A DNA stretch of 64,000 nt from an uncultured Bacteroidales bacterium (GCA_964546655.1 CAZJKL010000001.1:69751-133750); one strand, 5' to 3'; shown: positions 3,272 to 25,795, counted from the first letter of the stretch. The notes: generated by a model not told the origin, from the letters alone. Translations and numbers: made by a program.

Positions 3272-3287
3272 AATGTTTAGTTTTTTA

Positions 3288-4277: not shown

Positions 4278-4285
4278 TATATTTG
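4278..4285 (+). promoter_or_regulatory. Candidate -7 box (TATATTTG) for rpn-like gene
   Basis: TAnnTTTG match 18 nt upstream of the ATG at 4304. Confidence 0.45.
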
Positions 4286-4303
4286 CATAAATTTCAAAAG
4301 ATT

Positions 4304-5188: not shown

Positions 5189-5203
5189 TAACCAGTTTGC
5201 GTC

Positions 5204-6547: not shown

Positions 6548-6560
6548 ATTTTTGAAAAGT

Positions 6561-7901: not shown

Positions 7902-7996
7902 AACATAAATATGTTTTTATTATACGTATTTAATACCTACTTAAATGAAGTCTCCCTGCGTAAAAATCTTTGTTTCTTTGCGTAACAATAAACCCT

Positions 7997-10693
7997 CTAC
8001 CTAGTTCCAATAACGCTAACATTTCCTGTAAAAACATCACCATCAGGAGAAGATAAAATATAAAAATAAACCCCATCGGTGAGGTCTTTGCCGTTAAAGT
8101 CGTTATTGTAAGCATTGCTTTTAAAAACCAAGTTACCCCAACGGTTAAAAACTTCAAGATTCCAAGTTTGTGGTGTTATGCCACCAATAAAAAAGAAGTC
8201 ATTAACACCATCGCCATTAGGCGTAATAATATTAGGTATATTAATATTACAAAATTTTGTGCTTACATTGGTTGTTGTTGTGTAGCTTCCACAATCATTT
8301 GTAATAGTTAAACTATAAGTACCTTCTTTTGCTTCAATAGTTTGAGTTGTTTCTCCCGTTGACCAAAGAAAAGAAGAACCATTGTTTTTAGCATTTAATA
8401 AAACAGTTTCATCATTGCAAACAGTTGTATCATTAATAATAACATCATAAGGCAAAGGTTTAACATTAATAGTTAATGATTCAAAATTAAAACAATTATT
8501 ATTATAAGAAAACACCTTATATTGTACCGTATCATTAGGTTTAGCCCAAGGGTTAATAATAGTTGAGTCGCTTAAATTTAACGAAGGTCGCCATCTAATT
8601 GTTAAACCCGAAGTAATAGCATTAAGCTGAACACTATCCCCATCACAAATAGTAATATCATCACCAACTTCAATATTAGGAACTGTTGTAACCTGAACAT
8701 TAACAATATCACTATTTCTGCAATTATTATCATCGGTAACTTCAACGGTATAAGAAGTATTAATTAAAGGCGAAGCAATAGGGTTAGCAATAAAAGCATC
8801 ATTTAAACCATCGCTTGGAGTCCAAACAAAACCGCCTACGCCAGTAGCATTTAATTGAACATTTGTACCGTAGCAAATATTTTCATCATTACCCGCATTA
8901 ATATTAGGAATATTATTAACAGTAATTAAGATATCGTCAGAATTAGAACAACCATTGCCATCGGTAACAGTAGCCGAATATAAAGTAGAAATACTAGGCG
9001 AAGCAATAGGGTTAAAAATATTATAATTACTTAACCCTGCATCAGAACCCCAAACAATATTACCAACACCAGTAGCATTAATTTGGATATTATCGCCATT
9101 ACAAATACTAGCATCTAAACCAGGAGCAGGCAAAACAGTAATATTAACCGAAGCAGAACCACTGCAACCACTATTATCGGTAACAGTAACCGAATGTAAA
9201 CCCGATTGAGTAACATTAAAAGTAGCATTTTGAGAGTTATCTTGCCATAAATAAGAAGCAAAAGGATAAGAAGCATCAAGCACAAAGTTATCACCTTGGC
9301 AAATAGTAGCATCATCGCCAATATCAATAACAGGAAGTTCAGAAATTTCAATATCTTGCGAAAAAGTTTCGGTAATACCACCTAAAGTAATGTTTAGCTT
9401 AACATTATAAGTACCAATGCCACCATACAAATGAGTAGGGTTAGGTTCACTAGAAGAGCCACCATCACCAAAATCCCAAAGCACATTATCATATTCAACA
9501 TCAGGCATAAAAAACTCAGTATTACTCCCTAAACAAGCTTTATCATACGAAAACTCCTGCTTAGTAAATATCGAATTGTAAAAATTGGGAAGACCCAAAT
9601 ATACATCTCTATCTGCTGTTAAAAAACAAGGATATGTATAATTGCAAATTAATCCTTGATTATTCGGATTGCTTATAACCCCTAAAGAATATATTTTATT
9701 GGCAAAAGTTGTAGCAATTGAATAATATATTTTACCATCAGGACCTAATTGTAATGCTCCGCATATTAAAGATGTATTTGTTTCGTAAATAATTTTTTTG
9801 GAATTTTCAATATCTTGTTGATTTCCTGACAATAAATTATATTGATTTAGTTTTATTTTCCCTTGTGAAGAAATATATAATAAATTATTATCAGGTGAAA
9901 ATTCGACACCATAAGGGTTATCATTATTCAATGAAAAAGTCATTGCATTTGATAATATTCCAGTAGAATTATTAAAATCAAATAATTCAAAATTTTTCAA
10001 ATATGTATTAGCGGAAACAATTTTTTTACCATTATGTGATGCTTTTAAATATCCAATAGCATTAGTGCCGTTATTACCTAAATATAAGTTAGTTATATTA
10101 ATTATAGGAATTACATTTAAACCATCTTTCGTAAGTAAATAACAATTAAATGCATTAGAATTAAAAAGACGAGTAATAATCCAAAAATCTGAATTATTAC
10201 GATGTTTAACAACTGTAACTTTTTCACAAGTTGGAGTAATAATAAGTATATTTTTATTACTTGTAATATCCCCTCCCCCGCCATTTAAGTTCATATCTAA
10301 CTCTGAATATCTTAATCCATTTATGCCTGCTTCTGCATCAATAGTAAAAATATAATAAATATTTTTTGATTTTGGTTTTTTAACAATTATTGCTGATTGT
10401 GTACTGCTATTATGCCCCATTAACCCTATTCCATTAGGCATGATATTATGTGTTCTATCCCATACAGTTAATCCATCAGTATAAAACAATAAATTTCCTA
10501 AACTGTCACAAATAGAAGCACATCCCTCCATTGTGTTCATCTGCCCATCAGTTAAAGCAATAGGCGTTCCGCTATTAAAATCAATTCCTGCGTTATTTCC
10601 AAAATACCAAATATTACCTTCTTTTTGGGCGTAAGTATTTAATGTAAATAAAATTAAAAAAAAGAATAAAAAGTATTTAATAGTAAATTTCAT
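7997..10693 (-). CDS. T9SS-secreted adhesin-like protein with gliding-motility-associated C-terminal domain
   Basis: Signal peptide. N-terminal propeller-like region. PKD-like segment ([17 protein letters not shown]). Five tandem ~65-75-aa Cys-containing Ig-like repeats (ICxGDxxxLxA...). C-terminal [12 protein letters not shown]...FNRWGNLVF...GVYFY sorting domain. Confidence 0.85.
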
Positions 10694-10789
10694 TATTTGT
10701 GTTTAATTAAAAAACAAGCTAAAATAATAAAAGAAAATAAAAAAGTGTGATTAAATATACAGTTTTTCTTAATTGTGAGTTTTTAGAAA

Positions 10790-10897
10790 TTAGTTCTCAA
10801 TTTCTATTATTTGTTTAATTTGACATTGATTATTAGGTAAATAGTGTGATGCTACATCCCATATAATTTCATAGTCAACACCAAAATATTCCCTGTG
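10790..10897 (-). pseudogene. 3' remnant of a second HepT (DUF86) gene, truncated by a palindromic element
   Basis: Minus strand reads HREYFGVDYEIIWDVASHYLPNNQCQIKQIIEIEN*, parallel to HDYFGIDSKEVWQIINNKLPELKKYIEE of the intact HepT. The frame is cut at the palindrome 10897-10921. Confidence 0.7.
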
Positions 10898-11049
10898 GTT
10901 CGTAGTTTGTAACTACGAACCAAATAAAAGTTAGTTTTTAAAACTAACAAGTACCGCATTAATTATAAATAAATTATTTTTAATTGTAGTTAAAAAACTA
11001 CAGTTTATAAAATGCGTTTCCGAAAGTTTTCGGAAGGAAACTATCGCAT
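10885..11049. repeat. Palindrome-rich composite repeat block, copy 2 (modules A and B)
   Basis: ggttcgtagtt-tgt-aactacgaacc at 10897-10921. gttag-ttttt-aaaa-ctaac. tgtagtt-aaaaa-aactaca. atgcg..ttccgaaagttttcggaa..cgcat at 11012-11049. Collinear with 61-367. Confidence 0.8.
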
Positions 11050-11056
11050 AACACCA

Positions 11057-11100
11057 GAAAACAAAGAAACAAGAGTTTTGGCAAATGTAAATTATTTATA
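11057..11100 (+). pseudogene. RHS handle fragment (ENKETRVLANVNYL*) abutting TA block copy 2
   Basis: gaaaacaaagaaacaagagttttggcaaatgtaaattatttata aligns with 2747-2790 and with 5315-5350 inside the intact cassette. Confidence 0.6.
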
Positions 11101-11352
11101 ATGACCTTTAAGAGAATAAATAAACAAAGTGTTATTTTCAATATTATAAATAAACCGATTTGTTTTATCAATACGACGCGACCATTTTCCAGATAATTGA
11201 TGCTTTAGTGCTTCAGGTTTTCCAATGCCTTTATATGGATTTTCTAATATAGCGTTTTTAAGTTCAATAATCCTTTTCTGAATAATGGTATTATTTGTTT
11301 TTTTCCAATAATCAATATGCTCAAGAGCTAAAGGAGAAATAACTATTTCCAT
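11092..11352 (-). CDS. Txe/YoeB-family type II toxin (copy 2, diverged)
   Basis: NPYKGIGKPEALKHQLSGKWSRRIDKTNRFIYNI...SLKGHYK. Same family as 2781-3053 but with many substitutions. Confidence 0.85.
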   Translation of the reverse strand: MEIVISPLALEHIDYWKKTNNTIIQKRIIELKNAILENPYKGIGKPEALKHQLSGKWSRRIDKTNRFIYNIENNTLFIYSLKGHYK

Positions 11353-11558
11353 AAATTGTCAAATTCAATAGAAGATACTTTTTTGCCTTTACCTGATTTA
11401 ATTGTTTTTTCTGCATCAAGAACCATATCTACAAAATTCTTATTGTAGGTTTCACTAGGCGAAACATCAAACTTAATTTTTAAAGCCTTCATAAAAGCTT
11501 TTAAAGCTTCAATTTGTGAGATGTTTTCGGTATAGGCTGTAATATTAATTGTTTGCAT
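11343..11558 (-). CDS. Small antitoxin (DUF2683-like), copy 2
   Basis: MQTINITAYTENISQIEALKAFMKALKIKF. N-terminal ~30 aa are near-identical to copy 1 and the C-terminal half is diverged. 10-nt overlap with the toxin gene. Confidence 0.75.
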   Translation of the reverse strand: MQTINITAYTENISQIEALKAFMKALKIKFDVSPSETYNKNFVDMVLDAEKTIKSGKGKKVSSIEFDNLWK

Positions 11559-11574
11559 AATGTTTAGTTTTTTA

Positions 11575-11582
11575 CAAAAATA
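11575..11582 (-). promoter_or_regulatory. Candidate -7 box (TATTTTTG on minus strand) for TA operon copy 2
   Basis: Same position and sequence as 3288-3295. Confidence 0.5.
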
Positions 11583-11692
11583 ACAAAATACTAACTCTTA
11601 AACAAAACAAGTTATTTATATTTTTTAATTTGAAAATAAAATTTTTATATCTTGCAATACCTAAACAAAAACAAACAGTGAAGATGTAAATT

Positions 11693-12022
11693 ATGGTTAG
11701 TGAAAAAATAATTAAAAGACTTTTAGTTCTAGTAAAATCAACTTTCGTGATCGCAAGTTGGTTGATGTATTATTTATATAAAAGTGAAAGAATTGAATAT
11801 TCAATAAATGTATTATGGAGAAATATAAATGAATATTCTTTATATGTTTTTGTGCTTTTGATAATGGTGGAATTTTTTTTAAAGGATAAAAAACAAATTT
11901 TCCTCTCTTTTATTTGTATATTAACAGCTTTTGTTTTAAGTCAAAACATCACTGCCGAAGGAACAAAAATAGATAGTTGGATAGACACAACTTTAAGTCG
12001 TACCCCATGTAAAAAAGAGTAA
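11693..12022 (+). CDS. Small predicted membrane protein (about three hydrophobic segments); possible orphan immunity gene
   Basis: Hydrophobic stretches LLVLVKSTFVIASWLMYYLY, YSLYVFVLLIMVEFFL and IFLSFICILTAFVL. The ATG overlaps a handle-like remnant (acagtgaagatgtaaattatgg). The 3' end runs into the repeat element, so the C-terminus may be repeat-derived. Confidence 0.4.
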   Translation: MVSEKIIKRLLVLVKSTFVIASWLMYYLYKSERIEYSINVLWRNINEYSLYVFVLLIMVEFFLKDKKQIFLSFICILTAFVLSQNITAEGTKIDSWIDTTLSRTPCKKE

Positions 12023-12183
12023 TTACTCACATATTTAATTGTTTTTTTGGGGTGTTCTTGAATGCCAAAGGCATTTCGTAATTTTCACTTATATCTCGTA
12101 ATTCATAATTTGTAATTCGTAATTATTATTGGTTTTCGTGAATACCTTCGGCATTTCGTAATTCGTAATTTGTAATTCGTAAT
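11986..12183. repeat. Composite intergenic repeat element (copy with two stem-loop + heptamer units)
   Basis: cacaactttaagtcgtaccccatg (left hairpin arm missing). aatgcc-aaa-ggcatt and aatacc-ttc-ggcatt stem-loops. Heptads at 12096-12123 and 12156-12183. Confidence 0.85.
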
Positions 12184-12413
12184 TATTAATTACTTTCTAT
12201 TATGATTCAATTAACAACCTGATAAACTGGTATTAACCCTTAATAATTAAGTATTTCACATTGCGTATTAAAAAATAATTTATAAAAAGTTCAAATAAAA
12301 TAAGGTTGAAAAAATAAAAATAAAGAAGAAAAAAGTATGAAGGTTAAAATTAATTTTATAAATTTAAATGTTTAAATTATAATTTAGAAATTTAATAATT
12401 GGAGAATAAAAAT

Positions 12414-14501
12414 ATGAACAAAAAAGCATCACTAAAGGTTACTTCACCTAAAAGTTTATACTATCATATTGATGAAGTTAGCAATGAAAAAAGAAGATTT
12501 GAAAATGTATTTCAATCTGTATCGAGAATGATTCTTGGTAATCCCGACAACATAGAAAAAGTTAATATTAACGGAAAAAATACTTATGATTTTAAAGTAT
12601 TTCGTCAGGGGAAAAAGCACATTGTTGGTATGCATGAAGAAATAAACAGTTTTGTTTCGTTTGTTAAAGATGCTGCTGAAGGTGGCTCTTCTGCCGAAAT
12701 GGCTTTCGTTTTAATTGGCGAACCAGGAAACGGTAAAACTTATTTAGTTGACTACTTAACAAAAATATACCGAAATTTTATTTCTCTTCCAGAAAATCGT
12801 CGTTACACTTTTAGATATAAAAACCTAGAAAGATTAGGCGGATACGGTAAAATTAATTATATCGAATCACAAACATTCGAAGACCCTATGGTTTTAGCTA
12901 TGAACTTGTCTGAAACTAAAGCCGAAAATATTAAATTTTTATCTAATCAAGGGTTAAGCGACAAAAAGATTGAACAACTTTATAATAATTATCGTCCACT
13001 TGGAGCATGTTCGTATTATGTTTTAGAACAAATTAAAGAATACTGCAATGGCGATATTGATAAATTAATTAATGAATTTATCGAAATAGTTCCTGTTCCA
13101 ATCAGCGAATCAAGAGGAACTGTTACAGGTAAATATGCAGCTAAAGATAAAATTACATCATCGGCTGTAGATTTATTAGGAGAAGAATCTATTACAAGAT
13201 TATTACATATAACAAATACCGATAACCCTTACCGTTTCGATTTAAGAAGAGGTGCTTTAGCAAGAGTTGCTGGTGGTGGTATTCACTTTGCAGATGAAAT
13301 TTTTAAAAATAAAAAAGACCTTGTTCAAGTATATCTTGGAGTAATTCAAAACAGAACTATTGAAATAGAAGGTTTTAAATGGCCTCTTGATACTTTAATT
13401 ATTGCAACTAGTAATAACTCAGAATTTGCTCGTTTCCTTGAAGAAAAAGAACAAGCACCTATTGTTGACAGATGCAGAATTACTTATATGTCGCACAATA
13501 CAAACTTTAAACTTCAACAACAATTAACCGAATATTCAATTGGTGGTGATGGTATTAAAACTACTTTCTTAAACGAAAAACTACACATTGATCCAAACTT
13601 AAATTATGCTATTTCGGTTGCTATAATATTATCTAGAATGCCAAAATCAGATAAATTATCACCAATCGAAATGATGAAATTAGCTGCAGGTGAAGTAGCC
13701 GGAGAAAAAAGTATTAAAACTTTAGGCGAAGTTATAAGCGAACTTAATAGCGACCCAGATGTTACTAAACGCTTTGGTCAAAAAGGTTTAGGACACAGAA
13801 ACCTTGGTCGTGCTATTCAGGTTTTATTAGAACAATCTGAAACACAAGAAGGAAAATGTATGTATGCTGGAGATATTTTTAAATCTCTTGAAAGAGTAAT
13901 TCTTGATTATGTTAATGATGCTAATGATAGAGCTAAATACCTTAATGATTTAAAAATTGCTAAAGGATTACATAGAAAAAATGTTATGACAACTATTTTT
14001 AATGCATATATGGATGAACCTAATGCTGTTGAAAAAGATGTTATGAACTATGTAAATATGATTATTGGTATTGATGCTAAAAATCTTGGTGCCGATAAAA
14101 TTTGGACATATCGCGATCCTCAAACAAATAAACTTGTTCCTTTAAAAATAGATGAGTCTTTTATTAATAGTGTTGAAGATCGAATTGGTCTAAAAACTCA
14201 AGAACAAAAACAAAGCTATAGAACAACTATCTCTAAAATATATGGTCAAAAAATGATTAAAGACCCTAATTATAATTTTATGGATAATAATGATTTAGTT
14301 AAAGCTGTTACTGATGTTCGATTAAAATCTGATATAGCTGGAGCAGGTAGCTTGGTTGGTGCATTATCTAATAGAACTAATGAAGAAAACCAAGTATTAT
14401 ACAATAGAATGATTGATACAATGATAAAAAAGTTGGGCTATTGTAGAACTTGTGCCGAAAAAACAATCGAATATTTCTGTACTCAAGATGATGTGAATTA
14501 A
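12414..14501 (+). CDS. prkA: PrkA/YeaG-family AAA+ protein (putative Ser protein kinase)
   Basis: Walker A GEPGNGKT (12717-12740). Overall layout resembles E. coli YeaG / B. subtilis PrkA. ATG at 12414 preferred over the TTG at 12399. Confidence 0.85.
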   Translation: MNKKASLKVTSPKSLYYHIDEVSNEKRRFENVFQSVSRMILGNPDNIEKVNINGKNTYDFKVFRQGKKHIVGMHEEINSFVSFVKDAAEGGSSAEMAFVLIGEPGNGKTYLVDYLTKIYRNFISLPENRRYTFRYKNLERLGGYGKINYIESQTFEDPMVLAMNLSETKAENIKFLSNQGLSDKKIEQLYNNYRPLGACSYYVLEQIKEYCNGDIDKLINEFIEIVPVPISESRGTVTGKYAAKDKITSSAVDLLGEESITRLLHITNTDNPYRFDLRRGALARVAGGGIHFADEIFKNKKDLVQVYLGVIQNRTIEIEGFKWPLDTLIIATSNNSEFARFLEEKEQAPIVDRCRITYMSHNTNFKLQQQLTEYSIGGDGIKTTFLNEKLHIDPNLNYAISVAIILSRMPKSDKLSPIEMMKLAAGEVAGEKSIKTLGEVISELNSDPDVTKRFGQKGLGHRNLGRAIQVLLEQSETQEGKCMYAGDIFKSLERVILDYVNDANDRAKYLNDLKIAKGLHRKNVMTTIFNAYMDEPNAVEKDVMNYVNMIIGIDAKNLGADKIWTYRDPQTNKLVPLKIDESFINSVEDRIGLKTQEQKQSYRTTISKIYGQKMIKDPNYNFMDNNDLVKAVTDVRLKSDIAGAGSLVGALSNRTNEENQVLYNRMIDTMIKKLGYCRTCAEKTIEYFCTQDDVN

Positions 14502-14512
14502 AAAATTAACAC

Positions 14513-15886
14513 ATGACTAAAAAATATAATAAATTATTGCAATTTGTTAAAAAAAACAACATTGATGTTGATAGCAATGAAGCCGTAAAACGAGAGTTGG
14601 AAATAATAAAAAATAGCAATAATCCTGATATTAAATTTAATAGTTCTTATTTGGGTTTGTATGATTTAAGCGATTTTGAAGTTATTCAAAAAATGAATTT
14701 AACTCCAATTAATCCATTAATTTCATTAAAAACTTTAGATGAGCTATTAGATCAAGATAAACAAAGAGTTAATGATGGTTTTCCAAGACGAATTCGTCTT
14801 GGAAAACTTGTTAAACCTTTGCAGGGAAATAAATCAAAAGTTGTTATAGTACCAACTACTACCGAACCTAAATTTTATCACGATAATTCGATAACCGAAG
14901 ATGATGAAGATAGCACTGGTGGCTCGGGAGAAGGTGAAGAAGGCGAAGTTATTGGCGAACAACAAGCTCAACCGCAACAAGGCGAGGGCGAAGGTCAAGG
15001 TGCCGGTGAAGGCAATTCTGCTGGTCACGATATTAGTCAGGAAGCATTCGATTTAGGTAAAATTATAACCGAAAAATTCCAATTACCTAATCTTAAAGAT
15101 AAAGGTTCTAAAAAATCTTTTTCTAAATATATCTACGACTTAACCGATAGAAATAGAGGCTTTGGTCAATTGTTAGATAAAAAAGCAACTTTAAAAAAAG
15201 TTATAGAAACTAATATCCTTTTAGATAATATCAAAGGAGGCGAATACTTTAATCCCGAAAATCTTATTCTAAATCCTAAAGATCAAATTTTTAGAATATT
15301 ATCGCAAGAAAAAGATTTCGAAACTCAAGCAGTTGTTTTCTTTGTTCGTGATTATTCTGGCTCAATGCAAGGCGAACCTACCGAAGCAATAACAACACAA
15401 CATTTGCTTATTTATAGTTGGCTAATGTTTCAATATCAAAATAATGTTGTTACAAAATTTATTGTTCACGATACCGACGCTAAAGAAGTTGAAGATTTTT
15501 ACACCTATTATCGTTCACAAGTTGCCGGAGGAACAAAAGTTGCCCCTGCTTTTAAACTTGTAAATAAAATTATTGACGAAAATCAATATCAAAAAGATTA
15601 TAATATCTATATATTTTATGGTACCGATGGTGATGATTGGGATAATGACGGTAAAGAACTCTTAGAAAACATTGATATTCTATTAAATAAAGTAAATAGA
15701 ATAGGTATTACTGTTGCTAAAAACGGTTGGTCAAGTAATGAAGCAAAAACAACAGTAGAAAAAAACATCGAAAAATCAGGATATTTACAAAGTAAATCAG
15801 ATTTAATTAAAATGGATACATTTAAATCTAAAGGTGTTTCTGAAGATAGAATTATTGAAGGTATTAAAAAAATTGTAGGCGAATAA
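14513..15886 (+). CDS. yeaH: YeaH/YhbH (DUF444) family protein with vWA-like MIDAS motif
   Basis: Acidic Gly/Glu-rich linker (GGSGEGEEGE...GEGEGQGAGEG). DYSGSM (DxSxS) at 15350-15367. Canonical position after prkA. Confidence 0.85.
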   Translation: MTKKYNKLLQFVKKNNIDVDSNEAVKRELEIIKNSNNPDIKFNSSYLGLYDLSDFEVIQKMNLTPINPLISLKTLDELLDQDKQRVNDGFPRRIRLGKLVKPLQGNKSKVVIVPTTTEPKFYHDNSITEDDEDSTGGSGEGEEGEVIGEQQAQPQQGEGEGQGAGEGNSAGHDISQEAFDLGKIITEKFQLPNLKDKGSKKSFSKYIYDLTDRNRGFGQLLDKKATLKKVIETNILLDNIKGGEYFNPENLILNPKDQIFRILSQEKDFETQAVVFFVRDYSGSMQGEPTEAITTQHLLIYSWLMFQYQNNVVTKFIVHDTDAKEVEDFYTYYRSQVAGGTKVAPAFKLVNKIIDENQYQKDYNIYIFYGTDGDDWDNDGKELLENIDILLNKVNRIGITVAKNGWSSNEAKTTVEKNIEKSGYLQSKSDLIKMDTFKSKGVSEDRIIEGIKKIVGE

Positions 15887-17490
15887 TGGAAATAATAAAT
15901 CAACATACTAAAAAAATAATGGAAGAATGTAAGCTTCGTGCAAAAGATGCCGGACTTAAATTCGATAGTGAAACATTAGAGTATATAGTTACTAATAAAG
16001 ATATGCTCGACCTTTCACCTAAAGTTATGATTCCTACCTTATATGACTATTGGGTTAATGATGTTGAAGTTTTAAAGGGTCAAGGTAAATACAAACTATA
16101 TCCATCAAATCCTTATGAAACAGTTATAAATTCACGCCCAGCTATTTCATTTTATAATGACAATAATCCCGATTGGATGAATATTATGATTTTTTATCAT
16201 GTTATTGGGCATATTGACTTCTTTCAAAACAATAAATTATTTGAACATACTTGGAATGATGATTTTGTTGGACAAGCTTTAGCTGATAAAAGATTAATAG
16301 CAAATTTGCGATTAACTTATGGCAGATGGGTTGATTATATTATAGAATTTAGCAGAAGCATTGATAACCTTGTTGGATATTTTCCTCATTTAGCTAAATT
16401 GCAATATAAAGGAGAGATGAATCCGCCGTCTAAAGTTGATTTTTATTTTGATAAATTTTTGCAAAAAGAAATTTCGGTTTCTTATATCGAATATTTTAAA
16501 GAAGTTGACAGATATAATAATGAAATAACCAATAGTCCAGAAAACGGCGAAAATATATTTTTCTCTAATATAAGAGCTAAATACCCAGAATTTAATTCAT
16601 TATATGAAACATTTTTAAATGAAGATGATGACGATTCTATTGATTTACTCGAATTTATAAATAGAAATTCACCTCTTTTAAACAAGCGAGATAATCAATG
16701 GATGAAGTCGGTTTTAAGTATTATTCGTAATACTTCGATGTATTTTCAACCTCAAATAAGAACTAAAATTGCAAATGAAGGTTGGGCTAGTTATTGGCAC
16801 GACAATTTATTTAGAAAAGACCCACGAATAAAAGGACACGAATCTGGTTATGCAAAATTAAATGCTGGTGTTACTTCAATAAGTAGAGTTGGTTTAAATC
16901 CTTATGCTATTGGTTTAAGATTGTTTGAATATGTAGAAGACCAAGCTAATAAAGGTAAATTATCGAGAGAATTTCAACTATTAAATGATGTTCAACAGCG
17001 TGAAGACTATAATAAAAATTGTAATACAGGGAAAGATTTAATTTTTAAAATCCGTGAAAACTTCTCTGATTTTATGTTTGTAAACACATTTGTTTCGCAA
17101 GATTTTGTTGATTATTATAATTTATTTGTTGTAGGTCAAAGATATAATCAACAAAGGCAAACTATTGAATATTACATAAAAAGCCGAAAAGCTCAAGATT
17201 ATAAAAATATGTTAATAGATTCGCTTTATCATCCACCTCTTATCTCGGTTAATAAAGAAAAAACTAATGAAGATAATTTATATCTAGAACATAAATTTGA
17301 ACATAAACAATTGGTTAAAGATTTTATTCCAGATACTTTATTGGGTATAGAATTTTTATGGGGAGGTCAGGTTCAAATAGAAACTACTGAAATAACTGTA
17401 AACAAACAAAGTAAAAACGAAAATCCTTTTGAATACAAAAAAGTGTTATATACAATAAAGGATAAAAAAGTAACAAAGCAAAATCTATAA
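15886..17490 (+). CDS. spoVR: SpoVR/YcgB family protein
   Basis: Conserved SpoVR-like blocks (YHVIGHIDFF, ANEGWASYWH). 1-nt overlap with the yeaH stop. Confidence 0.85.
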   Translation: MEIINQHTKKIMEECKLRAKDAGLKFDSETLEYIVTNKDMLDLSPKVMIPTLYDYWVNDVEVLKGQGKYKLYPSNPYETVINSRPAISFYNDNNPDWMNIMIFYHVIGHIDFFQNNKLFEHTWNDDFVGQALADKRLIANLRLTYGRWVDYIIEFSRSIDNLVGYFPHLAKLQYKGEMNPPSKVDFYFDKFLQKEISVSYIEYFKEVDRYNNEITNSPENGENIFFSNIRAKYPEFNSLYETFLNEDDDDSIDLLEFINRNSPLLNKRDNQWMKSVLSIIRNTSMYFQPQIRTKIANEGWASYWHDNLFRKDPRIKGHESGYAKLNAGVTSISRVGLNPYAIGLRLFEYVEDQANKGKLSREFQLLNDVQQREDYNKNCNTGKDLIFKIRENFSDFMFVNTFVSQDFVDYYNLFVVGQRYNQQRQTIEYYIKSRKAQDYKNMLIDSLYHPPLISVNKEKTNEDNLYLEHKFEHKQLVKDFIPDTLLGIEFLWGGQVQIETTEITVNKQSKNENPFEYKKVLYTIKDKKVTKQNL

Positions 17491-17496
17491 TTATAT

Positions 17497-19740
17497 ATGG
17501 CTAAAATTAAAAAAAACGAGAATTATAGTGAGTTAGAAGAAAAAGCTAAAAAGCTAGAAGGATTACTAAATTTAACTAGCAATATAATTGAAAATGAACG
17601 AAGAAAACCAATAACTTTTAATGATTTTCTTTTTAATACTTCTAATTCTCCAGACAAAACCTTAAGAAACATATTTCAGCTATTTAATGATATGATGAGT
17701 TTTTATGTAGGTGATGGAGTTGATGAATATTCTTCTGATAAATTTACTATAGGATTTAAAAACTATAATTTTGATAAATTATTTATAGAAAATAGCGAAA
17801 ATCCATTTTTTGCAGATAGATTATTTGCTAATAGACTTATGAATTTAACCGAAACTATTAGCTTAGGTGTTCAAACCAATAGATTTTATCTTTTCGAAGG
17901 ACCTCCTGGTAGCGGTAAAAGTACATTTTTAAATAACTTCTTAAAAAAATTAGAGGATTATACTAAAACCAAAGAAGGCACACTTTATACAACTTTGTGG
18001 AGAATAGATAAAAATAAAATAAATGATAAAGATTTAAAAATAGCAAATTCATTAAAAGATAATAAAAACGATTTTCTAGAAATTAGTTGTCCTAGTAATG
18101 ACCACCCTATTTTACAAATACCAAAATATTATAGACGCCAGTTTTTAGAAACTTTAATTTCAGACGAAGCTCTAAAAAAAGAAATATTTGAATCAAAAAA
18201 ATATGAATGGATTTTTAAAGATGATCCTTGTAGTATTTGTAGCTCAATTTTTAATTCATTAATTGATAAGGTTGATCAACCTCTTGAAGTTTTTGATATG
18301 ATTTATGCTAAAGCTCTCGATTTTAGTCGTCAGTTTGGACGAGGAATAAGTGTTTATAACCCTGGAGATATTATTTATAAAAATCCAATTGAAAATAACG
18401 AATTACAAAATAAAATATCGTCACTTTTTAATACCGATGAAATAAAATATGTTTATTCGCCTTTGTCTAGTACAAACAACGGTGTTTATTCATTAATGGA
18501 TATTAAAGAATATAATATCGACCGATTATTATCATTACATGGTATCATTAGTGATGGAGTTCACAAGGTAAAACATTTAGAAGAACATATTAGAACAATG
18601 TTTATCGGAGTTATTAACCCAGAAGATAAACGACATTATGAAAATATTAAATCGTTTCAAGATAGAATTACAACGATAAATGTGCCTTATATTCTTGATT
18701 ACAATACCGAAGTTAATATTTATAAAAATAAATTTGGCGAAAATATCGAAGCTTTGTTTTTACCAAGAGTATTGAAAAATTTTGCTAAAATAATTATTTC
18801 AACAAGGTTAGAAAGAAACTCACCTGCTATTCGTAAATGGATAAATCCTGACAATTATAGTAAACATATTGATAAAAATATGCTTTTATTAAAAATGGAT
18901 ATTTATACCGGAAAAATTCCAACTTGGATAAAAGAAAATGATTTAGATACATTTACTCCTGAAATTAGACGAAATGTTATTGGTGAAGCTGAAAAAGAAG
19001 GTGTAGCTGGTTTCTCTGGACGACAATCTTTAGTGATTTTCAATAACTTAATTAAAAAACATTCTTGTAAAAAGAAACTTATAACAATGGAAAACATTAA
19101 AAGTTTCTTTATCGAATATGATAATTTAGAGGCTAATGTTCCTGAAGGATTTATTGATTCATTAAACCAATTATATGAATTTAATATTTTAGAAGAAGTA
19201 AAAGAATCAATCTATTATTACAATAAAAATCAAATAGCTAAAGATATTCAAAACTATATCGAAAGTGTTAATTATGAAATAGGCGAACAATTTGTTTCTA
19301 AATACACAAATGATAATATCGAAGTAACCGAAGATTTTTATAAAAATTTCGAGTTTATTGTTTTAGGTTCAACGGTAAGTAATAATGAACGAAGACAATT
19401 TAGAAATAATGTTTTAAATGAATATATTAAAAAAACTTTGTCTCAAGAAATTAATGTAGAAAGATTAAAAATTACTGAAACAGAATTGTTTAATGCTTTA
19501 ATGGATAGATATATCCGTAACTTAAAAGATAATGCTTTAGCTCCTTATAGTAATAATGATAATTTCAGAAGGGCAATATTAGATTATAACAACAATGAGT
19601 TTAAAAACTATGATAACAAAATTAAAAAGAGCATAGAATTCCTTGTAAATAATATGATAAACAAATTTAATTATACAAAAGAAGGAGCTTTGCAAACAAT
19701 AATTTATGTAATTGATAAAAAATTAGATAGTCAATTTTAA
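17497..19740 (+). CDS. Second, divergent PrkA-like P-loop protein
   Basis: Walker A GPPGSGKST (17899-17925), preceded by a PrkA-like N-terminal region (FADRLFANRLMNL...FYLFEGPPGSGKS). Same operon, 6-nt gap after spoVR. Confidence 0.7.
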   Translation: MAKIKKNENYSELEEKAKKLEGLLNLTSNIIENERRKPITFNDFLFNTSNSPDKTLRNIFQLFNDMMSFYVGDGVDEYSSDKFTIGFKNYNFDKLFIENSENPFFADRLFANRLMNLTETISLGVQTNRFYLFEGPPGSGKSTFLNNFLKKLEDYTKTKEGTLYTTLWRIDKNKINDKDLKIANSLKDNKNDFLEISCPSNDHPILQIPKYYRRQFLETLISDEALKKEIFESKKYEWIFKDDPCSICSSIFNSLIDKVDQPLEVFDMIYAKALDFSRQFGRGISVYNPGDIIYKNPIENNELQNKISSLFNTDEIKYVYSPLSSTNNGVYSLMDIKEYNIDRLLSLHGIISDGVHKVKHLEEHIRTMFIGVINPEDKRHYENIKSFQDRITTINVPYILDYNTEVNIYKNKFGENIEALFLPRVLKNFAKIIISTRLERNSPAIRKWINPDNYSKHIDKNMLLLKMDIYTGKIPTWIKENDLDTFTPEIRRNVIGEAEKEGVAGFSGRQSLVIFNNLIKKHSCKKKLITMENIKSFFIEYDNLEANVPEGFIDSLNQLYEFNILEEVKESIYYYNKNQIAKDIQNYIESVNYEIGEQFVSKYTNDNIEVTEDFYKNFEFIVLGSTVSNNERRQFRNNVLNEYIKKTLSQEINVERLKITETELFNALMDRYIRNLKDNALAPYSNNDNFRRAILDYNNNEFKNYDNKIKKSIEFLVNNMINKFNYTKEGALQTIIYVIDKKLDSQF

Positions 19741-19856: not shown

Positions 19857-19864
19857 TAAATTTG
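19857..19864 (+). promoter_or_regulatory. Candidate -7 box (TAAATTTG) for thx-like gene, overlapping two TCGTAAT-type heptads
   Basis: TAnnTTTG match 33 nt upstream of the ATG at 19898. ttgtaat tcgtaat at 19862-19875. Confidence 0.45.
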
Positions 19865-19897
19865 TAATTCGTAATAACATTTTTAACAGTTAATTTT

Positions 19898-20200
19898 ATG
19901 GGAAAAGGTGATATTAAATCAAAAAAAGGTAAAATTTTAAATGGCTCTTATGGGGTTCGAAGAAGAAGAAAAAAATCTAATTCTTATATCCCGGTTGTTA
20001 AAGAAAAAACCGAAAAAGTAAAAAAAATTGAAGTTGCTGAAATAAAGAATGAAGTTTTAATTGAAACAGAAGTTCAAGAAACAGCTGACAAAAAAACTAA
20101 AGCTCCTGTAGCTAAGAAAAAAGCTCCTGCAGCTAAAAAAGAAACAACAGAAGAAACTGCTCCTAAAGCAAAGAAAGCAACAAGCAAGAAAAAGGAATAG
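19898..20200 (+). CDS. Ribosomal protein Thx-like N-terminus fused to Lys/Ala/Glu-rich tail
   Basis: MGKGDIKSKKGKILNGSYGVRRRRKK parallels Thermus Thx ([25 protein letters not shown]). The C-terminal ~70 aa are KAPVAKKKAPAAKK...APKAKKATSKKKE. Confidence 0.65.
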   Translation: MGKGDIKSKKGKILNGSYGVRRRRKKSNSYIPVVKEKTEKVKKIEVAEIKNEVLIETEVQETADKKTKAPVAKKKAPAAKKETTEETAPKAKKATSKKKE

Positions 20201-20229: not shown

Positions 20230-20269
20230 TTAAGGGTTTTGCTTTCTAAGTAAAACCCTTAAGTTTTTT
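20230..20269 (+). terminator. Rho-independent terminator after thx-like gene
   Basis: ttaagggtttt-11nt-aaaacccttaa followed by gtttttt. Confidence 0.8.
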
Positions 20270-20366: not shown

Positions 20367-20374
20367 TATTTTTG
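20367..20374 (+). promoter_or_regulatory. Candidate -7 box (TATTTTTG) just upstream of the immA-like ATG (near-leaderless)
   Basis: TAnnTTTG ends 6 nt before the ATG at 20381. Confidence 0.35.
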
Positions 20375-20380
20375 CAATAT

Positions 20381-21559
20381 ATGGCAGAGAAAGCATACAT
20401 AACGGCAAAAGTTTTTAAATGGGCAAGAGAATCAGCTAAAATGACTGAAGAAATTGCTGCATCTAAAGTTGCTGTTTCTATTGATAAGTTTAAGGATTGG
20501 GAAACAGGAGAAGATTATCCGACTATTCGACAGGCACAGACATTAGCGAAAGCGTATAGAAGACCATTTGCATTATTTTTTCTGCCTGATGTACCAAAAG
20601 ATTTTCAACCTCTTCAAGATTTCAGGAAAATAGGCTCAAAAGAATTAAGTACATCTTCAATTTTTATAATTCGAGAAATACAACAAAAACAAGCTTGGAT
20701 TAGCGAAGTAAACGAAGATAATAATGAAAATATAGTTCCATTTATTGGCAAATTCACTATTAAAGATAATCCAGTACTTGTTGCTAAGGATATTCTCGCT
20801 ACGTTAAATATCAACCCATTAAATTATAAATCTAATAATCCAATCATTGAATGGATTGATAAAGCTGAATCTAATGGGATTTTTATTTCAAGGACTAGTT
20901 TTATCCATTCAAGGCTAAAGTTAGACTCAAATGAAATTCAAGGTTTTGCAATTGCAGACGACTTTGCTCCTTTCGTATTTATTAATTCTGACGATTGGAA
21001 TGCTCCTCAATTATTTACTTTAGTTCACGAACTTTCTCACCTTTGGATTGCCGAGACGGGGATATCAAATGACGTAGAGCCATCAATAAAAAAAGCTGGT
21101 GATTATAATCCAATTGAATTATTCTGCAATGAAGTTGCTGCAAACGCACTAATGCCTATGGAATTTATTGATAGTCTTGATAGTAAGGCTTTTAATAATG
21201 CTAAAGAAGTTTTTGAAAATGCTAAAATAATTGGGGTTAGCTCTTTTGCATTATTGGTTAGAGCATTAAACCTTAACATTATTTCATTAAGTGCATATAA
21301 ACAATTGAAGCATATAGCCGACATTGAATATAACGAATTCTTAAAAAGAGAAGAAGCAAAAAAAATAAAGCAGAAAGAGAAAGAAAAACGAGGCGGGCCA
21401 AATTATTTTTTACTGCAACTAAACAGAAATAGTAGATTATTTACACAAACTGTATTAGATGCTTTTCGTGGTGGGGTAATTGAACCATCTATGGCAAGTA
21501 ACTTATTAAATGTTCAGGTAAATAAGTTTCCCAAACTTGAAGCACAAATATACAGATGA
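20381..21559 (+). CDS. XRE-type HTH fused to ImmA/IrrE (DUF955) zinc metallopeptidase
   Basis: N-terminal HTH-like segment (TIRQAQTLAKAYRRPFALFF). HEXXH = HELSH at 21026-21040. ATG at 20381 preferred over the TTG at 20372. Confidence 0.8.
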   Translation: MAEKAYITAKVFKWARESAKMTEEIAASKVAVSIDKFKDWETGEDYPTIRQAQTLAKAYRRPFALFFLPDVPKDFQPLQDFRKIGSKELSTSSIFIIREIQQKQAWISEVNEDNNENIVPFIGKFTIKDNPVLVAKDILATLNINPLNYKSNNPIIEWIDKAESNGIFISRTSFIHSRLKLDSNEIQGFAIADDFAPFVFINSDDWNAPQLFTLVHELSHLWIAETGISNDVEPSIKKAGDYNPIELFCNEVAANALMPMEFIDSLDSKAFNNAKEVFENAKIIGVSSFALLVRALNLNIISLSAYKQLKHIADIEYNEFLKREEAKKIKQKEKEKRGGPNYFLLQLNRNSRLFTQTVLDAFRGGVIEPSMASNLLNVQVNKFPKLEAQIYR

Positions 21560-22062
21560 GTATGATTAATAAAAAATTCTGCTTAGATGCTAATGTGCTT
21601 ATTCAAGCATGGCAAAAATACTACTCTCCAAAAATATGTCCAAGCTATTGGGATATGCTTAATGAATTAGGTGCTAATAATGTCATTTTCATGCCAGTGA
21701 TGGTCTATGATGAAATTGTTCGAACGGATGATGATTTATCAAAATGGTTGAAGTCAAGTAAAATTCCTATTAGAAAAATTGACGAGCAAGTAACAAAATG
21801 CTTAAAAGACATTTATTCTGCTGACCCTAACCACAAATATTTAGTTGATAATACAAAGGCAAGATCTTTGGCAGACCCATGGGTGATTGCACATGCATTA
21901 AGAGAGAACGCAACAGTCGTAACAAAAGAAGAAAAAGTAACAGCCATAAATACTACAAAAATAAAAATTCCTAATGTGTGTGAAAAGATGAATGTATCAT
22001 GGATTAATGATTTTCAATTGATTATTGAGTTAGGGATTATATTTAAGTGTGAAATGGAATAA
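21556..22062 (+). CDS. DUF4411 (PIN-like) protein, partner of the ImmA gene
   Basis: FCLDANVLIQAW...YY...DPWVIAHA...VVTKE pattern recalled for DUF4411. 4-nt overlap with the immA-like gene. Confidence 0.75.
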   Translation: MSMINKKFCLDANVLIQAWQKYYSPKICPSYWDMLNELGANNVIFMPVMVYDEIVRTDDDLSKWLKSSKIPIRKIDEQVTKCLKDIYSADPNHKYLVDNTKARSLADPWVIAHALRENATVVTKEEKVTAINTTKIKIPNVCEKMNVSWINDFQLIIELGIIFKCEME

Positions 22063-22341: not shown

Positions 22342-23346
22342 ATGTTTTTATCAATGAATTTACCAATTTATTTTTCGGCGATATATAATAAATATTTGGA
22401 AATAAAGGTTCAGAAAAAATTCAACAAAAGTTTCCTTATTCCTTATCTAAACGAACTAGAAGTAAAGTATAACGGTAATTTTGATCCTGTGCAGGTTCAA
22501 AAAATACTAAATTATTATGGATTATTTATTACTTCTTTTCTTTGCAGCAGCTATAAACAATTGTATGGTAAAAAATTAACCTCAGAAGAAAGAAAAAGAG
22601 CAACATTGTTTGGAATTTTAACTCCGGTAGTAGATGATATGTTTGATGTTGAAAAATCTGATATAGAAAGTATAAAAGCTATTGCTTTAAATCCCGAAAA
22701 TAGTTCACCTGAATCATTTTCTTCAAAAGTGTCTAGAGAAATACATGTTTTTGAAAAGCAAAATGTGCGTTATAAAAAAGAATACCTTGAAGCTTGCGAA
22801 AATTTACTGGAAATACAAATAGAAACTATAAAACAAACTAATCCCGAAATTTCACCAGAAGAAATTGAGCGAATTACTTATACCAAAGGTGCATGGTCGG
22901 TAATTATTTATCATCAAGTGCTTGATGATATTGCCGATAAACAAATGAAAGAAGTTTTATTTTTAATTGGCAGTTTATTTCAGCTTGGAAATGATACTTT
23001 TGATTGTTATAAAGATGTGAAAGATAATATTTATACTCCAGTCACAACCTGTGTTGATTTCGTCGCTTTTAAAAAGAAATTTCTCAACATATTACAGGAA
23101 ATGAATGTTAAAATAATGGATTTGCCATATAATAAAAAAAATAAAAAAGAATTTTGTATTGTTATAAATGCAATTAATGCAAGAAGTTTGGTGGCAATAG
23201 ATATGTTTATCAGGTTACAGAAAAAAATAGGCACAAAAATTAATTGGCATAATTTGGATAGAAAATCTATGATTTGTGATATGGGAAAACCTATTAATAT
23301 TATAAGGTGGGTTTATTATATTTTTCGTTTGCCGCTTTTGAAATAA
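22342..23346 (+). CDS. Uncharacterised helical protein with Asp-rich motifs (isoprenoid-synthase-like?)
   Basis: DDMFD (aa 98-102, nt 22633-22647), DDIAD (aa 195-199), NDTFDCYKD (aa 217-225, nt 22990-23016). No long hydrophobic TM segments. Confidence 0.7.
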   Translation: MFLSMNLPIYFSAIYNKYLEIKVQKKFNKSFLIPYLNELEVKYNGNFDPVQVQKILNYYGLFITSFLCSSYKQLYGKKLTSEERKRATLFGILTPVVDDMFDVEKSDIESIKAIALNPENSSPESFSSKVSREIHVFEKQNVRYKKEYLEACENLLEIQIETIKQTNPEISPEEIERITYTKGAWSVIIYHQVLDDIADKQMKEVLFLIGSLFQLGNDTFDCYKDVKDNIYTPVTTCVDFVAFKKKFLNILQEMNVKIMDLPYNKKNKKEFCIVINAINARSLVAIDMFIRLQKKIGTKINWHNLDRKSMICDMGKPINIIRWVYYIFRLPLLK

Positions 23347-23386: not shown

Positions 23387-24637
23387 ATGAAAAAGTATAA
23401 TTTTGTTTCTGTATTATTTGAGTTATTTTTTATGAAATATATAATTTTAAAATTTATAAAATACTTTAGAGCCTTTTGGGTGTTTGGTGTTTGTTTTTCA
23501 TTTGTTTTTTTTCTAACAAATAATACTATTACAGCACAAACTCCTGATACAATTTTAATCAATCAACTTATAAAAGAAATAGCAAAAGAACAGGTAAAAA
23601 CTAAAACAGAATTATTTGAGGGAATGTTTCCTTCTTTTCGTGAATGCAGCGGAATACCACATAATTACCAACCCGATAATACAGTTTTTTTTACTGCTAT
23701 TTCAATTTTTACATTACAAAATCTTCTGCCTTATCTGAAAAATGAAAATAAAATTATTGCCGAAAATGTGATTGAAAACGGTATTAAAAGCTTTATTTAT
23801 TATAAAAATAAAAAAGGGCCTTTTTATGGTTTTTGGCCTACCGATAGTATTATTATGCCGCATACATATTATTTAAAATATCTTAAATGTATTTTCGGAC
23901 AAGGTGACGATGCTGATGACGCAGTGATGATTTTGATGGCTTCTAAAAGTAATGATAGTATTTGTAGCGTTTTAAAAAAACGTTTGATTGAAGTAAGTAA
24001 TTTGAACAGTAAAAGAATTTTTTCTACGTTCAAAAGATATAAAAACATACAAGCTTATAGCACTTATTTGGGATATAAAATGCCTGTGGATTTTGATCTT
24101 GGAGTTCAATGCAATATTCTTTATTTTATGTTCGACAGAAAATTACCTTTGGTTAAGCAGGATAGTGCTACAATTAAATTACTTCAACAAATTATTGCAA
24201 ATAGGGATTACATGAAACACCCTATTTATTTATCGCCATATTATGTAACATCGCCCATTCTTTTATATCATATTTCGAGGTTGATTGGGAAATTTAAAAT
24301 TAATGAATTAGAACCATATAGGCAACAATTGATTGATGATATAAGAAAATTATATAATAGTGGGAATACAATGGATAATATTATTCTAAATACATCTTTA
24401 ATTAGGTTAAAAGCAAAACCGTTTAGTTCAGAAATTAACTCATTAAGCGAATTTAAAAAAAGTGACCAAAATAAATTTATTTTTTTTCAGGCAAGAGCTG
24501 CATTTTGGTACCCAACACCTTTGAAACAAATTTTTCTTCATTTCAGATATATCAACTATTATTTTTATTGCCCTACTTATAACAAATTATTATGGTTGGA
24601 ATATCTTGTTGAAAAAAATAGCATCAGTTGGTGGTAA
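23387..24637 (+). CDS. Uncharacterised protein with N-terminal signal/anchor and a DxDD-like motif
   Basis: Hydrophobic leader ...FFLTNNTITAQ. GQGDDADDAVMILMA (aa 171-185, DDADD at nt 23906-23920). 41-nt gap after the previous gene. An alternative start is at 23432. Confidence 0.7.
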   Translation: MKKYNFVSVLFELFFMKYIILKFIKYFRAFWVFGVCFSFVFFLTNNTITAQTPDTILINQLIKEIAKEQVKTKTELFEGMFPSFRECSGIPHNYQPDNTVFFTAISIFTLQNLLPYLKNENKIIAENVIENGIKSFIYYKNKKGPFYGFWPTDSIIMPHTYYLKYLKCIFGQGDDADDAVMILMASKSNDSICSVLKKRLIEVSNLNSKRIFSTFKRYKNIQAYSTYLGYKMPVDFDLGVQCNILYFMFDRKLPLVKQDSATIKLLQQIIANRDYMKHPIYLSPYYVTSPILLYHISRLIGKFKINELEPYRQQLIDDIRKLYNSGNTMDNIILNTSLIRLKAKPFSSEINSLSEFKKSDQNKFIFFQARAAFWYPTPLKQIFLHFRYINYYFYCPTYNKLLWLEYLVEKNSISWW

Positions 24638-24766: not shown

Positions 24767-25795
24767 ATGGAAAACTTTGATGAATATTTAAGACAAGGCG
24801 AACCAAACAAAACTGAGAAAGCAAAAGTTTGGAAAACGGCTATCGGCTTGCAACAAGTTGACGGCTTAAAACCATCTGAATATCTCATTGATACTGCTAA
24901 ACAAAACATTGAAGGAGACATAACCATTGACGAAGTAAAAAAACGCATTGACAGTTATTATCAGCAATACCCAACCAAAACAAACGAAGACCGCACTGAA
25001 GAAGCCGACAAGGTTTCGGTAAGAATTGCTGAAATGTTGAGTGAGCAAACCTTTACGTTTTCACCCGCAGAATACTTATCAATTCATCGAAGATTGTTTT
25101 CAGGTATTTACAAATTTGCAGGAAAAATTCGTGATTACAATATCACCAAAAAAGAATGGGTTTTGAATGGCGAAACCGTTCTTTATGCAAGTGCAGACAG
25201 TTTGAAAGAAACTTTGGAATATGATTTTGAACAAGAAAGAAAATTTAGTTACAAAGGATTAAGCGAACAGGAAATAATAGAACACTTAACACGCTTTATT
25301 TCTTACCTGTGGCAAATCCACATTTTTGGCGAAGGCAACACACGAACAACAGCAATTTTCTTAATAAAATATTTGCGAAAATTAGGGTTCAAAAACGTAA
25401 ACAACGATTTGTTTGCAGATAACTCTTGGTATTTCCGAAATGCACTTTTAAGAGCCAACTACGAAGACTTATCAAGAGGAATTTACAGAACAGAAAAATA
25501 TTTGATTCGCTTTCTTTCAAACTTATTACTCAAAGAAAATTATTCGCTAAAAAATCGTGAAATGTATATTTTAGCAGAAAATGCAGATGACACTGTAAAG
25601 CTACAAATTGAAACTGTAAATGATACTGTATTTTCATTGATTAAGCAAGATAACAAAATAAAGGCGAACGAAATTAGTGAACGATTGAGATTGAGTTTAA
25701 GTACTGTGAGACGAAAAATCAAAGAACTCAAAAACAACAGTAAAATAGAACGTATTGGTAGTGATAAAACAGGATATTGGAAAATAAAGGTATAA
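24767..25795 (+). CDS. fic: Fic/DOC family protein with C-terminal winged-helix domain
   Basis: Fic motif HIFGEGNTRTT. C-terminal ISERLRLSLSTVRRKIKELK...GYWKI is HTH-like. N-terminal helix contains NIEG. Confidence 0.85.
   Translation: MENFDEYLRQGEPNKTEKAKVWKTAIGLQQVDGLKPSEYLIDTAKQNIEGDITIDEVKKRIDSYYQQYPTKTNEDRTEEADKVSVRIAEMLSEQTFTFSPAEYLSIHRRLFSGIYKFAGKIRDYNITKKEWVLNGETVLYASADSLKETLEYDFEQERKFSYKGLSEQEIIEHLTRFISYLWQIHIFGEGNTRTTAIFLIKYLRKLGFKNVNNDLFADNSWYFRNALLRANYEDLSRGIYRTEKYLIRFLSNLLLKENYSLKNREMYILAENADDTVKLQIETVNDTVFSLIKQDNKIKANEISERLRLSLSTVRRKIKELKNNSKIERIGSDKTGYWKIKV

Follow-up and report, generated by a model that had tools for sequence, protein, structure and literature searches.

A prkA-yeaH-spoVR-prkA operon of an uncultured Bacteroidales bacterium as a little-described variant of the PrkA-YeaH-SpoVR module

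A stretch of 64,000 nucleotides from an uncultured Bacteroidales bacterium (GCA_964546655.1 CAZJKL010000001.1:69751-133750; the whole stretch is termed the window hereafter) harbors four consecutive genes at positions 12414-19740, which encode two PrkA-like AAA+ proteins, a YeaH-type DUF444 protein and a SpoVR protein. The PrkA-YeaH-SpoVR triad is well known in non-sporulating bacteria, and the module serves other bacteria in sporulation, under osmotic stress, or during starvation or stationary phase. The genes and their leader are arranged as follows:

12191-12413, + strand: AT-rich leader, presumed promoter region of the operon 5' of prkA1 (sequence read)
12414-14501, + strand: prkA1, AAA+ ATPase of the PrkA family, 695 aa, AAA_PrkA domain at the N-terminus and PrkA domain at the C-terminus (Pfam, motifs)
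14513-15886, + strand: yeaH/yhbH-like gene, 457-aa DUF444 (vWA-like) protein (Pfam, NCBIfam)
15886-17490, + strand: spoVR/ycgB-like gene, 534 aa (Pfam PF04293)
17497-19740, + strand: prkA2, 747-aa deeply divergent PrkA paralogue (Pfam, profile comparison)

Calls of open reading frames (ORFs) and inspection of the junctions bear out the tight packing described in an earlier, sequence-only reading of the stretch. The four genes constitute a tight operon, in which 11 nt separate prkA1 from yeaH and 6 nt separate spoVR from prkA2, while the intergenic distance of yeaH and spoVR amounts to -1 nt. At this latter junction, the stop codon of yeaH and the start codon of spoVR share one nucleotide (TAATG), which suggests translational coupling. 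The length of 695 aa given for PrkA1 is counted from an ATG, and an alternative TTG start is located at 12399. A simple scan detected no terminator-like site on the + strand within 12414-19740, and its sole convincing terminator is situated 3' of a bTHX-like gene downstream of prkA2. Promoter-like sites occurred at chance level (55 found vs. 59 expected) in a scan whose consensus was that of sigma-70 and not of the Bacteroidota type. A sigma-54-type -24/-12 motif is absent upstream of prkA1 in the window. In related loci, scanning of the 350 nt 5' of prkA1 for TGGCAC-N5-TTGCW with at most two mismatches yielded such motifs in 26 of 124 cases vs. none of 124 shuffled controls, the carriers being mostly of the Desulfobacterota type (e.g., L123, L124, L149 and L163). 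These motifs echo the reported activation of Escherichia coli yeaG by NtrC (bioRxiv 10.1101/254623).

Pfam models assign the first three products to PrkA, YeaH/DUF444 and SpoVR, as had been proposed from the sequence. PrkA1 matches PF06798 (PrkA, 119.9 bits) and PF08298 (AAA_PrkA, 50.9 bits), each exceeding the gathering cut-off of 25, while its score against the NCBIfam model PRK15455 is 34.8 vs. a cut-off of 576 and its identity to E. coli YeaG amounts to 25% over 295 aa. It features a Walker A motif (GEPGNGKT), a canonical Walker B motif (HFADE), a sensor-1-like ATSNN and a DRCR motif, all of which are kept at 98-100% in a set of 78 non-redundant cassettes. YeaH matches PF04285 (DUF444) with 114.9 bits and the NCBIfam equivalog NF003712 with 585 bits (cut-off 421). 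Its metal ion-dependent adhesion site (MIDAS) reads RDYSGSM and is accompanied by a second element, GTDGDDWD, as well as by an acidic Gly/Glu-rich linker at about residues 128-172. The MIDAS residues are conserved at 98-100% in the 78 cassettes, with D280, S282 and S284 reaching 100%. SpoVR is recognized by PF04293 with 203 bits vs. a cut-off of 27.

The fourth product, PrkA2, completes the Pfam assignment of all four genes to the expected families, as its C-terminal PrkA domain matches PF06798 with 122.4 bits, while its AAA_PrkA match (PF08298, 23.1 bits) falls slightly under the cut-off of 25. NCBIfam PRK15455 does not match PrkA2 at all; NCBIfam provides no adequate model for either PrkA1 or PrkA2, and its curated models separate neither paralogue. 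Pairwise identity of PrkA2 to E. coli YeaG is 25% over 142 aa. PrkA2 carries the Walker A motif GPPGSGKST, a Walker-B-like element with a single acidic residue (LMD-I-K) and a CP...CxxC cysteine cluster with C198, C245 and C248. The glycines, lysine and serine of Walker A together with M334, D335, K337, N374, D377 and R390 are kept at 98-100% in the 78 cassettes, and the Walker A residues G, G, G, K and S as well as N374, D377 and R390 are 100% conserved between phyla. Database homologues of PrkA2 number more than 2,000; the top ones reach 50-57% identity along the entire protein and stem mostly from Bacteroidales/Bacteroidota metagenome-assembled genomes (MAGs). A library with clusters formed at 50% identity yielded 127 matching clusters at E <= 1e-30. 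The nearest distinct relative is 57% identical, anything closer being identical contigs with identical flanks from three samples, and the clusters inspected for close relatives contain a single member each.

PrkA1 and PrkA2 show no detectable similarity by BLASTP (E = 0.11). A profile-profile comparison aligns them with 90.8% probability (E = 1.2e-6) at 18% identity, collinear over 590 columns, and the N-terminal half of PrkA2 is also collinear with the PDB entry 9xip. The earlier assignment of the fourth protein as PrkA-like is thus substantiated by both the PF06798 match and the alignment to PrkA1. Since the two proteins are invisible to each other in BLASTP, yet collinear at the profile level, their sequences mark them as ancient paralogues. 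When a few members of the family are compared, PrkA2 turns out to be the more 'classical' one: its single-acidic-residue Walker B is common to YeaG, Thermomicrobium roseum PrkA and two PrkA-like cluster representatives that are 24-26% identical to PrkA2 (P0271 and P0273), and its CP...CxxC cluster is common to T. roseum PrkA and P0271. By sequence, it is PrkA1 that stands apart, with a canonical HFxDE Walker B and without a Cys cluster. Likewise, PrkA2 aligns better with 9xip (77.8 bits over residues 41-621) than PrkA1 does (53.6 bits). An AlphaFold2 model of PrkA2 from a 51-sequence alignment attained a predicted local distance difference test score (pLDDT) of 75 and a predicted template modeling score (pTM) of 0.66, with the AAA core (279-400) poorly resolved, and a Foldseek search of this model against the PDB returned no match at E <= 0.001.

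The four-gene order is not a peculiarity of the window. A PrkA2-seeded scan of one genome per GTDB species gave at least 376 pattern matches and returned 80 loci; 46 of these loci comprise at least 7.6 kb upstream of prkA2 and are hence informative for the full order. PrkA1-YeaH-SpoVR-PrkA2 was found in 39 of the 46, and SpoVR adjoins PrkA2 in 22 of 23 shorter loci. SpoVR is the most constant neighbor of PrkA2, being encoded directly 5' of it in 63 of 69 informative loci. In a scan of metagenome contigs seeded with PrkA1, which was chosen to avoid the bias of PrkA2 seeding, YeaH-SpoVR-PrkA2 follows 3' of PrkA1 in 37 of 45 informative loci. Record titles of the carriers name Bacteroidota, Kapabacteria, Desulfobacterota, Geobacteraceae, Aminicenantes, Omnitrophota and Spirochaetes/Spirochaetota, and a cultured carrier is available with the isolate Desulfatitalea alkaliphila M08but (L056). 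Therefore PrkA2, which had been taken for an extra paralogue added to the triad, is regularly present as the fourth gene of an operon type shared by several phyla, and the window copy is an ordinary member of this four-gene variant. A description of the bacterial prkA1-yeaH-spoVR-prkA2 order or of its spread across phyla was not found in the searchable literature; the operon is a little-described variant of the known PrkA-YeaH-SpoVR module.

Several loci show individual arrangements. In a deltaproteobacterial MAG (Meg22_1012_Bin_121, L063), positions 1-12226 contain the tandem ...YeaH-SpoVR-PrkA2-PrkA1-YeaH-SpoVR-PrkA2, i.e., the entire operon is duplicated. In some complete Kapabacteria-like genomes, namely L005 (OW818654.1, 8586-12295), L014 and L015, prkA2 occurs alone, without spoVR; a gene for a 449-aa protein without a Pfam match precedes prkA2 in L005, and prkA1 is found about 9.5 kb downstream of prkA2 in L014.

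Divergence of the four proteins proceeds in parallel. Across the 78 cassettes their pairwise identities correlate with r = 0.89-0.94, the strongest correlation being that of PrkA2 with PrkA1 (r = 0.94). Mean identities amount to 75% for PrkA1 (minimum 64%), 60% for YeaH, 61% for SpoVR and 54% for PrkA2, so that constraint is much stronger on PrkA1, which retains 64-82% identity between phyla, than on the other three. This co-variation marks the operon as a single evolving unit under strong purifying selection.

The sequence-only reading had further regarded the cassette as an accessory or anti-phage module with mobile boundaries. PADLOC gave no meaningful match for the four proteins, only P-loop noise (PtuA, E = 0.004; mad8, 21 bits over 35 residues). 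The genomic surroundings were surveyed through the three nearest ORFs per side in about 40 other genomes (224 proteins), which constitutes a sample and not a formal enrichment score. These flank proteins fall into 183 clusters, which indicates the lack of a conserved neighbor. Among 150 of them, Pfam most often recognizes response regulators, RNase D domains, histidine kinases, P-type ATPases, hydrolases and tRNA synthetases, while PADLOC matches are sparse and mostly concern generic domains. The flanks elsewhere are thus of the housekeeping type: a defense-island location holds in the window, but does not recur in this sample. Sharing of flank genes follows PrkA2 identity, as it was observed in 2/2 pairs at 80% or more, in 7/17 pairs at 70-80% and in few pairs below; this gradual decay of flank synteny with divergence is the behavior of ordinary chromosomal genes. 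None of the window flank genes recurs in the 80 genome loci, save for a weak CHU_C match in L010 (26% identity, E = 1e-11), because these loci are too distant.

A tblastn search of 72,556 plasmids and 50,697 phage records revealed no close homologue of the cassette. The records contain only distant PrkA genes: one belongs to a classical triad of the T. roseum megaplasmid, and others are carried by Thermus phages and by one megaphage. The phage proteins, PrkA-like 'serine kinases', are 21-24% identical to PrkA1 or PrkA2 and stem from the Thermus phages TMA, phiYS40 and YS40_Isch (AP011617.1, NC_008584.1 and MK257744.1) and from a 595-kb uncultured phage (LR756511.1, 347760-348953). For the cassette itself, neither carriage by mobile elements nor boundaries of such elements were found, and no integrase or tRNA gene adjoins it.

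The rest of the contig carries core chromosomal genes, among them those for Lon, DnaE, a gyrase-B-type topoisomerase, the anaerobic ribonucleotide reductase NrdD, and PorZ; the assignment to a Bacteroidota host is upheld by PorZ and CHU_C type IX secretion genes as well as by NrdD, Lon and DnaE. The GC content of the cassette matches that of its surroundings (uniformly about 0.23-0.32). The following features accompany the operon:

751-1656, 2062-2689 and 11092-11558: AbiD (234 bits), MNT/HepT (PDC-S09) and YoeB/DUF2683, respectively, left of the cassette
1750-1810, 4050-4214 and 11986-12190, + strand: dispersed intergenic repeat of about 165-205 nt, all copies 5' of + strand genes
5204-6547, 6552-7901, 22342-23346 and 23387-24637: ORFs of 447, 449, 334 and 416 aa without Pfam match in accessory stretches
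7997-10693, - strand: type IX secretion substrate of 898 aa with PKD, Ig_7 and CHU_C domains (domain matches)
19898-20200, + strand: bTHX-like gene, 100 aa, between prkA2 and the ImmA gene, with a strong terminator hairpin of its own at 20230-20262
20372-22062 and 24767-25795: ImmA/M78 protein with RmrA-like matches plus DUF4411, and Fic-HTH (PADLOC candidate PDC-S72, 474 bits), respectively, right of the cassette

As the sequence-only reading had noted, genes of the toxin-antitoxin (TA) or defense type thus occur on both sides of the cassette; AbiD, MNT/HepT, YoeB, ImmA/DUF4411 and Fic surround it only in the window genome. The product of 7997-10693, which had been read as an RHS protein, yields only PKD, Ig_7 and CHU_C domain matches and no RHS/YD repeats, so that the RHS identity was rejected in favor of a type IX secretion substrate. 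For the four ORFs without Pfam match, PADLOC returned no match in either of the two pairs tested. The first 26 residues of the 100-aa ORF 3' of prkA2 match bTHX (Pfam Thx, 23.8 bits, under the cut-off of 29.7) and are followed by a long Lys/Ala/Glu-rich tail; the ORF may represent an extended bTHX variant.

In the intergenic repeat, tandem TTCGTAATT units come after a GAATGCC-N4-GGCATTC hairpin, and the copy at 4050-4214 directly borders the start codon (ATG) of a gene for a PDDEXK_2 transposase-like protein. Rfam contains no match for it. The repeat left of the cassette (11986-12190) is real, as had been noted, yet its proposed role as a mobile boundary was rejected: the other copies are intergenic elsewhere, and the right side of the cassette contains no full partner but just a 15-nt core of the repeat (19861-19875), so that the cassette is not bracketed. 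The repeat could constitute an element similar to miniature inverted-repeat transposable elements (MITEs) or repetitive extragenic palindromic (REP) sequences, or a shared regulatory leader.

Taken together, the operon is probably a chromosomal, essentially vertically inherited gene set and a cross-phylum, two-PrkA variant of a starvation or growth-arrest module, as opposed to a mobile or anti-phage unit. The nucleotide-binding motifs of the two PrkA paralogues are invariant, as is the MIDAS metal site of YeaH. Based on the findings in relatives, an ATP-driven growth-arrest device is proposed: in six bacteria, each of yeaG, yeaH and ycgB has its highest cofitness with the other two, and a single pathway was suggested for them (bioRxiv 10.1101/072470); YeaG is reported to be required in sustained nitrogen starvation (PMC4664914); and PrkA of Bacillus anthracis is an AAA+ protein that oligomerizes with ATP and is required for sporulation and osmotic stress, the pure protein displaying no detectable kinase or protease activity (PMC13001217). 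By analogy with this tight cofitness and with AAA+/vWA pairs, we infer a joint action of the ATPases with YeaH and SpoVR. The two AAA+ ATPases would act together, either within one mixed oligomer or ring or in the form of a pair of rings that cooperate. In this hypothetical division of labor, PrkA1 with its canonical Walker B 'DE', which includes the catalytic glutamate, might be an efficient motor, while PrkA2 with the family-style single acidic residue and the Cys cluster might be a more specialized or regulatory partner. YeaH could serve as a MIDAS-dependent adaptor that works with both ATPases and SpoVR, and the outcome would be ATP-dependent remodeling of, or signaling on, target proteins when growth stops.

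Several observations weigh against this interpretation. The cassette of the window is flanked by TA- and defense-type genes on both sides. A minority of loci contain split genes, with SpoVR-PrkA2 alone in L004, PrkA2 alone in L005, L006, L014, L015 and L018, and PrkA1 alone in six metagenome loci, which implies that the four genes are not strictly inseparable. In addition, the identity of about 70% that PrkA1 retains between phyla could in part reflect ancient horizontal transfer beside constraint. The physiological role is transferred by analogy from relatives that are about 25% identical, and a physical interaction of PrkA1 with PrkA2 is purely inferred.

An anti-phage or conflict module, in which an NTP-dependent AAA+/vWA system residing in a defense island senses infection and triggers growth arrest, would account for AbiD, MNT/HepT and YoeB/DUF2683 to the left and ImmA/DUF4411 and Fic-HTH to the right of the window cassette, and the PrkA-like genes of the Thermus phages and the 595-kb megaphage, although distant, show that the PrkA family does appear in phage genomes. 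Defense systems are fast-evolving and patchily distributed, whereas the operon exhibits strong constraint and cross-phylum co-divergence; its proteins lack a meaningful PADLOC match, its flanks in the other genomes sampled are of the housekeeping type with few generic PADLOC matches, its synteny decays gradually, and close homologues are absent from the plasmid and phage records searched. Moreover, no paper linking bacterial PrkA to anti-phage defense was found in the searchable literature. A defense function is hence extremely improbable: in all likelihood, the operon is neither mobile nor devoted to anti-phage defense, and the TA, Abi and Fic neighbors are accessory genes adjacent to it by chance. 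The earlier view of an extra paralogue in a mobile, defense-linked setting is largely unsupported.

Two further explanations concern the relation of the paralogues to each other. The operon might accommodate two units, the PrkA1-YeaH-SpoVR triad as the equivalent of yeaG-yeaH-ycgB on the one hand and PrkA2, alone or with SpoVR only and directed at different targets, on the other. The split loci listed above, in which PrkA2 lacks an adjacent PrkA1-YeaH or PrkA1 stands alone, the constancy of SpoVR as the neighbor of PrkA2 and a kinship of the paralogues beyond the reach of BLASTP would fit such a partition. It is nevertheless unlikely, considering that more than 80% of the informative loci hold all four genes in one order, that the divergence of PrkA2 follows that of PrkA1 best of all pairs and that 6 nt separate spoVR from prkA2 in the window. 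Less probable still is that PrkA2 represents a catalytically dead pseudo-ATPase scaffold, retained only for structural reasons. No glutamate stands beside the acidic residue of its Walker B (LMD-I-K; E338 is present in a minority of sequences), and its AAA core is the low-confidence region of the AlphaFold model. On the contrary, a single D/E followed by I/M also constitutes the Walker B of YeaG, T. roseum PrkA, P0271 and P0273, and its occurrence in canonical PrkA proteins identifies it as the family norm and not as a sign of decay, while the complete cross-phylum conservation of the Walker A residues and of N374, D377 and R390 likewise speaks against a dead enzyme.

Within the favored reading of a two-PrkA growth-arrest operon, a more specific proposal is tentative and rather doubtful: the operon might define a 'two-motor' class, in which PrkA1, a paralogue under extreme constraint, gained the Walker B 'DE' and PrkA2 kept the ancestral Cys cluster together with the PrkA-style Walker B, the two forming an obligate heteromeric or relay AAA+ machine. 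If this were true, the conservation of the operon across phyla, in lineages mostly of anaerobic sediments, would point to a core device for dormancy or growth arrest. The PrkA-YeaH-SpoVR module is among the most widespread bacterial gene clusters with unresolved biochemistry, with both kinase and protease activity having been disputed recently, and the maintenance of two very different PrkA ATPases together across phyla amounts to a natural dissection of the PrkA family. Since D. alkaliphila M08but is a cultured carrier, the variant could help to work out the function of the module. The main value of the present analysis is a negative one, namely that TA/Abi adjacency in a single genome is no evidence of a defense role.

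Among known systems, the operon compares most directly with the PrkA/YeaG-YeaH/YhbH-SpoVR/YcgB module, as exemplified by yeaGH and ycgB of E. coli, prkA-yhbH and spoVR of Bacillus subtilis, and prkA-yhbH-spoVR of T. roseum. It bears the features of a member, as it contains the same three families in the same order as the T. roseum triad, an order reported in most bacteria (bioRxiv 10.1101/072470). It differs from the module by its fourth gene, the second PrkA paralogue, and PrkA1 differs from the canonical PrkA proteins compared by its Walker B 'DE' and by lacking the Cys cluster. Both window PrkA proteins are about 25% identical to YeaG and range far under the PRK15455 cut-off.

Among solved structures, sequence similarity to the window PrkA proteins was detected for just one, a 692-aa 'Serine protein kinase' (PDB 9xip/9xiq/9xir), for which no paper was found in the searchable literature. 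It resembles PrkA2 in its CP...CxxC cluster and Walker B style, while overall similarity is low and its Walker A reads HGPVGSAKST; the Foldseek search with the PrkA2 model did not retrieve 9xip. A functional analogy only is offered by MoxR-type AAA+/vWA-MIDAS pairs such as RavA-ViaA, in which, as in the window, an AAA+ protein is encoded beside a vWA-like protein with an intact MIDAS. Unlike the MoxR proteins, PrkA proteins possess a large family-specific C-terminal domain and match PrkA models only, their AAA_5 match being confined to the Walker A region (24.7 bits). Furthermore, SpoVR has no counterpart in MoxR systems.

In terms of gene content, the operon can be likened to a haloarchaeal signature cluster described in 2011, in which two PrkA-related kinases are combined with DUF444 and SpoVR in all haloarchaea (PMC3102087). 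The two PrkA genes are reported to be adjacent in that cluster, whereas yeaH and spoVR are located between them in the window. The putative two-motor machine possibly represents the same ancient architecture as this haloarchaeal two-PrkA cluster.

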